64,000 nucleotides of DNA from an uncultured Alphaproteobacteria bacterium (GTDB lineage Bacteria; Pseudomonadota; Alphaproteobacteria; RF32; CAG-239), in contig CAKQRZ010000004.1 in the NCBI GenBank assembly GCA_934271715.1, forward strand, positions 11,651 through 75,650. Reading direction: 5' to 3'. The position numbers were made by a program, and so were the translations under genes. Under the pieces are notes generated by a model. That model ran no database searches and was not told the DNA's origin. It worked only from the letters and a program-made list of their open reading frames with translations. Below, in pieces: positions 61,162-61,463 of this stretch. The number at the start of each line of letters is the position of its first letter. The stretch's first letter is position 1.

Positions 61162-61463
61162 AATAACTTCCTTTCTCTTTGAAATTAAACAAAAAAGCCG
61201 TCTGAAAAAGACGACCGGAAGTTGAGAACTACTGTATATAAGTATAGTGTAGCATATTAGCGTATAGCATATTTTGCTACCTTCCGATCAATAGACCAGA
61301 AGGTATTTAACGTCTAATATTTGACGTATATACAAGAGGTTCTCACACCTCGGACAGACTATCGTCTGTCTATTGTAAAGTTATAAAAAAAGCGGTAAAA
61401 TATCAAGTAAAAAATGTCACAAATTATAAACCGGTGACAATTTGTCGCCGGTTTATATAAAGG

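Follow-up and report, generated by a model that had tools for sequence, protein, structure and literature searches.

A covarying hairpin at the head of a probable attenuator leader upstream of pilin-like genes in uncultured gut Alphaproteobacteria

What is the role of a short sequence with dyad symmetry that recurs at a nearly constant distance from the start codons of three paralogous pilin-like genes? A preliminary description of the 64-kb stretch of DNA that contains them (referred to here as the window, i.e., the whole stretch that was analysed) offered two possibilities, an operator for a dimeric regulator or a conserved RNA hairpin. The closest genome record to the window is a MAG from the Hadza gut, labelled Alphaproteobacteria. 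A six-frame search of the window gave five paralogues with the N-terminus GRSMIEMLGVLAI(I/V)(G/A)VLSVGGIAGYSKAM:

11458-12165, minus strand: pilin-like paralogue 1
15156-16028, minus strand: pilin-like paralogue 2, 290 aa, with a long in-frame insert before GRSMIEML
38038-38682, minus strand: pilin-like paralogue 3, 214 aa
59771-60472, plus strand: pilin-like paralogue 4
60532-61161, minus strand: pilin-like paralogue 5, 209 aa

The genes had been called pilins. The N-terminal motif, G-RSMIE with Glu at +5 together with a hydrophobic helix, is indeed pilin-like, but the proteins have no Pfam match and reach only 13.9 and 10.9 bits with the prepilin domain TIGR02532, for which the curated cut-off is 16.3. 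The label rests on the N-terminal GRSMIEMLGVLAI stretch and, judged by it, is reasonable although unproven. Relatives in MAGs, all from uncultured Alphaproteobacteria, are named "type II secretion system protein/GspH family" or hypothetical, and at 90% identity the family falls into at least 7,321 protein clusters. The insert in paralogue 2 is an in-frame, hairpin-rich segment of about 240 nt (15800-16010, minus strand) between the signal-peptide start MYKNFEN and GRSMIEML. Similar modules, sometimes in tandem, were found in L002, L003, L009, L038 and other loci, and many homologues measure 250–370 aa compared to the usual size of about 210 aa.

The three dyads are present exactly as originally quoted. 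Read on the minus strand, each of them corresponds to a hairpin, designated P0, that belongs to a longer leader of one of two types (see below):

38889-38910, minus strand: P0 hairpin of the paralogue-3 leader (type A), UAGAUAGAU-GAUA-GUCUAUCUA, with 9 of 9 pairs on the minus strand
16242-16263, minus strand: P0 hairpin of the paralogue-2 leader (type A), UAGAUGAGC-GAUA-GCUUGUCUA, with two G·U pairs
61351-61372, minus strand: P0 hairpin of the paralogue-5 leader (type B), UAGACAGAC-GAUA-GUCUGUCCG

The pattern that they share, GANNNNCTATCNNNNNTCTA, has three exact matches in the window and one unrelated match with 1 mismatch. The chance expectation is about 0.47 matches when 1 mismatch is allowed, and a total of four was reached in 0 of 100 shuffles, i.e., the three dyads are real and commoner than chance in the window. 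All three pilin-like genes downstream of a dyad lie on the minus strand, and the spacing is as first reported: the dyads end 190, 207, and 214 nt before the start codons of paralogue 5 (ATG at 61161), paralogue 3 (ATG at 38682), and paralogue 2 (ATG at 16028), respectively.

Whether such a dyad works as DNA or as RNA can be read from the way in which it varies. On the minus strand, i.e., the pilin-sense strand, P0 has a 9-bp stem and a 4-nt loop with the consensus RAUA. Homologous loci were gathered by way of their pilin-like proteins, 10 from species-representative genomes and 80 from metagenomes, and 33 copies of P0 were extracted from them (alignment A2). Standard pairs occupy 92.9% of the stem cells compared to a mean of 81.2% after shuffling, and cells in which both partners have changed number 32, where 10.6 are expected and none of 500 shuffles gave as many; six of the nine pairs are changed on both sides. 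When the 3′ arm was slid out of register pairing fell to 28–45%. The sense strand holds 66 G·U pairs, whereas the antisense strand is paired to 75.1% only and holds 13. Two unrelated stem families, AGAYAGRY/GUCUGUCU and GAAAGYRC/GYGCUUUU, occupy the same slot, and the loop is GAUA in 14 copies, AAUA in 12 and something else in 7. The covariation of the arms that had been noticed in the window is therefore real. The accompanying claim that the palindrome is preserved is correct for an RNA stem but not for DNA at 16242-16263, where all nine pairs are standard on the sense strand and only seven are Watson-Crick, so that, because of the two G·U pairs, this site forms a perfect 9-bp stem solely as minus-strand RNA. 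Pairing is kept while the sequence drifts, as in 5′-terminal stabilising stem-loops. A pattern like this marks a hairpin in RNA and not an operator in DNA.

A DNA operator overlapping +1, through which a dimeric transcription factor co-regulates the pilin-like paralogues, would nevertheless explain why the dyad is common to many paralogues and why it is found directly downstream of a −10 element (see below), which is a common position for a repressor site. It would leave unexplained that the Watson-Crick share of the arm cells is as low as 70.7% among the 33 copies, with departures that are overwhelmingly of the sense-strand G·U type (66 vs. 13), that conservation is much stronger in the 3′ arm than in the 5′ arm, and that the dyad is contiguous with, and stacks on, an RNA structure which itself covaries. 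Strand-specific G·U pairing and the existence of two stem families together indicate an RNA helix, as one dimeric protein would not tolerate such different arms. The operator is for these reasons very improbable, and we are confident that the dyad acts as RNA. Pairing of P0 with the ribosome-binding region was also considered and rejected, as inspection by eye found those regions unchanged when the P0 stem family changes.

P0 does not stand alone. It is the first helix of a leader of 185–205 nt in which it is followed by P1, P2, the hairpins H1–H3, and an intrinsic terminator:

38740-38888, minus strand: type-A leader body of paralogue 3, from the minimum-free-energy fold and the consensus fold
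38875-38888 with 38740-38754, minus strand: P1 of the paralogue-3 leader
38862-38871 with 38756-38765, minus strand: P2 of the paralogue-3 leader
38843-38861, minus strand: H1 of the paralogue-3 leader
38802-38828, minus strand: H2 of the paralogue-3 leader
38769-38794, minus strand: H3 of the paralogue-3 leader
16057-16241, minus strand: type-A leader body and terminator of paralogue 2
61191-61350, minus strand: type-B leader body and terminator of paralogue 5

Folded as single sequences and compared with shuffles, the leaders of paralogues 3, 2, and 5 gave z-scores of −6.6, −5.5, and −7.0, respectively. The consensus fold of type A, built on 21 leaders (paralogues 2 and 3 and their relatives), has 57 pairs with 97.3% of cells paired, and its 136 double-change cells exceed the 42 seen in shuffles, a count of 136 being reached in 0 of 500. 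Within it P1 is a long closing helix whose three middle pairs covary perfectly with none broken, P2 is a hypervariable helix in which 7 of 7 pairs show double changes, and the hairpins H1–H3 and their junctions, enclosed by P1 and P2, are almost invariant in sequence. Type B (10 leaders, from paralogue 5, the related MAG L001 and relatives) has the same architecture, with 17 covarying pairs. Common to both types are P0, a UUAAA junction and the flanks of P1 (GGG[CU]GU-NNN-AACC... and ...GGUU-NNN-AAC[AU]UCC), whereas the sequences of H2 and H3 differ between them. Where P0, P1, and the terminator meet there is zero or one linker nucleotide.

Apart from the dyad the upstream region of paralogue 5 had been taken to be unrelated to the other two. 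This was wrong, as it has the same order of P0, P1, P2, H1, H2, H3, and terminator, and a profile HMM made from type-A leaders only aligns with it over positions 2–179 of 182 (E = 9e-7). The same profile finds all 10 type-B leaders (E from 3e-7 to 8e-3) and matches 0 of 200 shuffles; the region upstream of paralogue 5 is therefore a subtype rather than an unrelated sequence, and A (paralogues 2 and 3) and B (paralogue 5) are two homologous subtypes of one leader family. Nor is an isolated dyad selectively retained at a set distance from the start codon: the distance is fixed because the dyad forms the first helix in a leader whose architecture is itself fixed. The leader is specifically associated with pilin-like genes. 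By profile HMM the window contains exactly three leaders, and among 43 matches in the window plus 90 loci selected by their pilin-like proteins, 42 have an ORF of the GRSMIEML type within 700 nt downstream. One divergent type-B leader (L038:860-1060) keeps P1, H2, H3, and the terminator but has a degenerate P0, and P0 is thus dispensable in at least one lineage. A leader peptide was looked for as well; the candidate ORF of type A (AUGCCGAUUU...) was rejected, as it is without a Shine-Dalgarno sequence, L052 and L064 have UUG in place of its AUG, and most type-B copies lack it.

How the leader may work is suggested by its 3′ end. Predicted terminators were called in all three leaders of the window and are conserved in the 21 type-A and 10 type-B leaders:

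38714-38739, minus strand: intrinsic terminator of paralogue 3, stem 38721-38739 and U-tract 38714-38720, about 40 nt before the ATG at 38682
16057-16087, minus strand: terminator of paralogue 2, stem 16066-16087 and U-tract 16057-16065
61191-61216, minus strand: terminator of paralogue 5, stem 61196-61216 and U-tract 61191-61195

Between terminator and ATG there are only 35–45 nt, Shine-Dalgarno sequence included. As this leaves no room for a promoter of its own, the pilin-like gene must be expressed by readthrough of the terminator, and from the terminator and this requirement for readthrough it follows that the whole element of 185–205 nt is probably a transcription-attenuation leader. One candidate antiterminator was found in both subtypes, a pairing of 7–9 bp between the 3′ arm of H2 and the segment just 5′ of the terminator: CGGAUGU with ACAUCCG in type A, GGCUGGAAG with CUUCCAGCC in type B, and GAUCGGAAG with CUUCCGGUC in the paralogue-5 variant of type B, the differences between the type-B variants being compensatory. 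To force this pairing costs 14–28 kcal/mol in type A and 6.5–13 kcal/mol in type B, i.e., the terminator-on fold is 6–28 kcal/mol more stable than the sole candidate found, and in type A the pairing leaves the terminator intact. It is thus energetically disfavoured, and we keep it as a possible antiterminator only. The plus strand of the paralogue-5 terminator stem (61196-61216) also contains GCCGTCTGAA, which is identical to the Neisseria DNA uptake sequence; this is taken to be coincidental.

At the 5′ end the sequence TTTAC[AT]-N16-18-TAAAnT, usually with a spacer of 17 nt (TTTAC[AT]-N17-TAAAnT), precedes P0 in 28 leaders, at a distance of 6 nt in 23 of these and of 5 nt in the other 5. In the window the promoter-like sequences are as follows:

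38917-38945, minus strand: promoter-like TTTACT-17-TAAAAT of paralogue 3, ending 6 nt before P0
16270-16298, minus strand: promoter-like TTTACT-17-TAAAAT of paralogue 2, ending 6 nt before P0
61372-61399, minus strand: atypical promoter-like TTTACC-16-TACAAT of paralogue 5, abutting P0

A scan of the window with a consensus promoter finds the same sites at 38945-38917 and 16298-16270. The canonical layout was not found at the paralogue-5 leader or at its orthologue (L007, minus strand), and the best promoter-like match at paralogue 5 would start transcription inside P0. [quoted passage not shown] That P0 is the 5′-terminal helix of an attenuator leader is, in our judgement, likely.

What would such a helix do? 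Stem-loops that stabilise RNA from the 5′ end are covered by references 92–95 and 109 of PMC3997798, the examples being ompA, the papA pilin mRNA and the Bacillus subtilis aprE leader. RppH-type enzymes need unpaired 5′ nucleotides (PMC3997798), and the tight spacing of promoter and stem seen here fits this need. There are likenesses to these stem-loops, as P0 is a short hairpin that is predicted, from the promoter spacing, to lie at the 5′ end of a highly structured leader or within a couple of nucleotides of it, as its stem is free to vary provided that pairing is kept, and as it precedes, like the papA hairpin, a gene of the major surface-filament subunit type. There are also two differences. 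First, the RAUA loop of P0 is conserved, whereas the known stabilisers do not require conservation of the loop. Second, P0 directly adjoins a terminator and a large domain of several helices.

The 5′ stem-loops of Escherichia coli ompA and of the papA pilin mRNA reportedly protect the RNA from decay that depends on the 5′ end. The explanation that we prefer, and hold with moderate confidence, is that P0 is both the 5′ cap and a clamp of the attenuator leader. P0 would form in the pilin-sense RNA, right after a sigma-70-type promoter, as the first structure of the transcript. It would stack directly on P1, with P1 and P2 enclosing H1–H3 and the terminator following directly after P1. By analogy with ompA and papA it may shield the leader and the mRNA from the RppH/RNase E route of 5′-end-dependent decay, and, as the flush junction of P0, P1, and terminator suggests, it may serve as a coaxial clamp that stacks on and stabilises the closed, terminator-competent fold. 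That 5′-end protection and structural clamping make up the main role of P0 is a more tentative proposal, to which we give slightly less than an even chance. The divergent L038 leader with its degenerate P0 and the missing canonical promoter at paralogue 5 and its orthologue count against the cap and clamp, and the conservation of the RAUA loop and its closing pair goes beyond what a purely steric 5′ cap explains and hints at a specific contact.

Such a contact is at the centre of a different explanation, in which P0 is mainly a recognition or tertiary-contact element of a regulatory RNA, either a new riboswitch or a protein-dependent antiterminator, and not primarily a decay shield. The RAUA loop may then be bound by a protein, or docked into the H2/H3 core, and so set the terminator decision. 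Conservation of loop and closing pair (GAUA or AAUA in 26 of 33 copies) while the stem drifts speaks for this explanation, and the zero linker nucleotides where P0, P1, and terminator meet agree with it, as does the near invariance of H1–H3 and their junctions, which is typical of ligand- or protein-binding cores. The leader in general resembles terminator-based attenuators and riboswitches in having a 5′ UTR with a conserved domain of several covarying helices and, between this domain and the ORF, an intrinsic terminator, and in combining a sequence-invariant core with variable scaffold helices; it is unlike them in that it has neither an Rfam match at gathering score nor a convincing antiterminator. 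Some c-di-GMP riboswitches lie upstream of pilin genes in other bacteria. The covariance models of the GEMM-I and GEMM-II c-di-GMP riboswitches did not match the three leaders at E values up to 10, however, and permissive Rfam scans of these leaders (E up to 10) revealed no riboswitch, ribozyme, or thermometer family. When alignments A3 and A4 were inspected, no sequence was found to change in concert with the loop variants; types A and B have P0 in common yet differ in the sequences of H2 and H3 into which it might dock, and the L038 leader is without an intact P0. We consider a primary recognition role fairly unlikely.

At gathering scores the only Rfam matches in the whole window are two tRNAs and the leaders match no family, but below these scores a third explanation comes into view. 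All nine type-A leaders tested match RF02221 (sRNA-Xcc1) over its full length (1–87) with 26–36 bits, the best having 35.6, and two of the nine match RF01695 (C4) with 21–22 bits. The leader could accordingly be a C4/sRNA-Xcc1-like antisense RNA, or the precursor of one, that acts in trans and whose 5′ end is marked and protected by P0. The last 87 nt or so of the type-A leaders thread the whole model, including a UUUGCUAAC-like junction and the U-run at the 3′ end. In the c4 precursor of phage P1 the loop and the junction of the C4 module have complementary sequences upstream; in the leader the 3′ half may refold, the 5′ strands of P1 and P2 being the counterpart of these cis-complementary sites. 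The corresponding C4-like fold of the 3′ ~87 nt, an outer stem with two hairpins, has 94.8% of its cells paired and one double, compensatory change (CCGU/ACGG to CCAU/AUGG in L007), and the invariant part of the leader would seem to be exactly the part that needs to satisfy both folds, while P0, the middle of P1, and P2 vary freely.

On the other hand the gathering scores, 53 for RF02221 and 45 for RF01695, are far from being reached, and type-B leaders match neither RF02221 nor RF01695 at permissive thresholds. The alternative fold costs 14–28 kcal/mol and is essentially without covariation, 11 of its 20 pairs never varying, whereas covariation supports the other fold (P0, P1, P2, and H1–H3). 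A second copy of the 5′ strands of P1 or P2, which would be a candidate target in trans, was not found in the 64-kb window. The context differs as well: for relatives of sRNA-Xcc1 and of the C4 RNA of phages P1/P7 a phage, plasmid, or integron would be expected, while the leaders are chromosomal and precede pilin-like genes. A phage origin was rejected, as none of 19 word matches to viral contigs was to the leader and all were spurious. An antisense function is thus improbable.

The cap and clamp of an attenuator remains our preferred reading of P0, and the leader that carries it is found among genes that have apparently been rearranged. Paralogue 3 is 100% identical over residues 8–214 between the window (38038-38945) and L001:1180-2121, and this same protein body is preceded by a type-A leader and the signal MYKNLEK in the window and by a type-B leader and the signal MNIFSKLKNDVCSA in L001. 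Recombination within the conserved stretch that codes for GRSMIEML has apparently swapped the promoter, leader, and signal modules. The convergent genes of paralogue 4 (plus strand) and paralogue 5 (minus strand) are inverted duplicates (59861-60433 and 60571-61143), with arms of 573 nt that show 88% complementarity and are separated by 137 nt; their proteins are identical over 136 residues and then diverge, and their 5′ modules are of type C and type B, respectively. Inversion or gene conversion could act on these duplicates. The type-C upstream module is a cassette of about 190 bp with terminal inverted repeats of 22 bp (GTGTGTAAAAAAAACGACCGTT / AACGGTCGTTTTTTTTACACAC) and an internal promoter-like site, found in the window before paralogues 4 and 1 and also before tRNA-Thr:

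approximately 59577-59762, plus strand: type-C module before paralogue 4
approximately 12193-12385, minus strand: type-C module before paralogue 1
approximately 43820-44012, minus strand: type-C module before tRNA-Thr

All 16 copies of the module that were found have the same orientation relative to the downstream gene; it may be an inverton or a MITE-borne promoter. An integrated element of about 4.7 kb (39015-43740), bordered on one side by tRNA-Thr (43665-43740, minus strand) and on the other by an incomplete direct copy of the 3′ end of this tRNA (approximately 39015-39060), carries a tyrosine integrase (39362-39952, PF00589); the element is absent from L001, in which the tRNA is directly upstream of the orthologous pilin-like gene. 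P0 as a site of recombination or inversion was rejected, as its arms are only 4 nt apart and the nearby integrase belongs to this tRNA-Thr island. Finally, the window contains two ORFs of 839 aa (61464-63983 and 32444-34963, both on the minus strand), the first of which is directly upstream of paralogue 5 and has an autotransporter beta-domain (PF03797).

Taken by itself the dyad is an element of an ordinary kind, a 5′ stem-loop, and a textbook case of how an RNA hairpin can be told from a DNA operator by its G·U asymmetry. The leader is a well-supported and apparently uncatalogued structured family, and a pilin-associated motif of this kind was not found in two surveys of candidate structured RNAs, Weinberg 2010 and Fremin and Bhatt 2021, or by keyword searches of the literature. 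It probably controls a very large family of pilin-like genes in uncultured gut Alphaproteobacteria. It is tempting to go further and to regard the P0-capped leader as a new class of regulatory RNA that governs this multigene family; although unlikely at present, such a class may be a riboswitch or an attenuator responsive to RNA polymerase or to a protein, or else a C4-like system of cis and trans antisense RNAs. In the latter case the hypervariable covarying helices (P0, the middle of P1, and P2) would constitute a pairing code for each paralogue, and terminated leader RNAs would cross-talk and so choose which paralogues are expressed. If the preferred explanation holds, these surface-filament-like proteins, a large family that has apparently not been characterised, would be expressed by way of a dedicated leader RNA that is absent from Rfam. 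The promoter, the 5′ cap hairpin, the four-way-junction domain, and the terminator would then provide a testable handle on how these bacteria control and perhaps vary their surface, and a well-supported candidate would be added to the orphan cis-regulatory RNAs.
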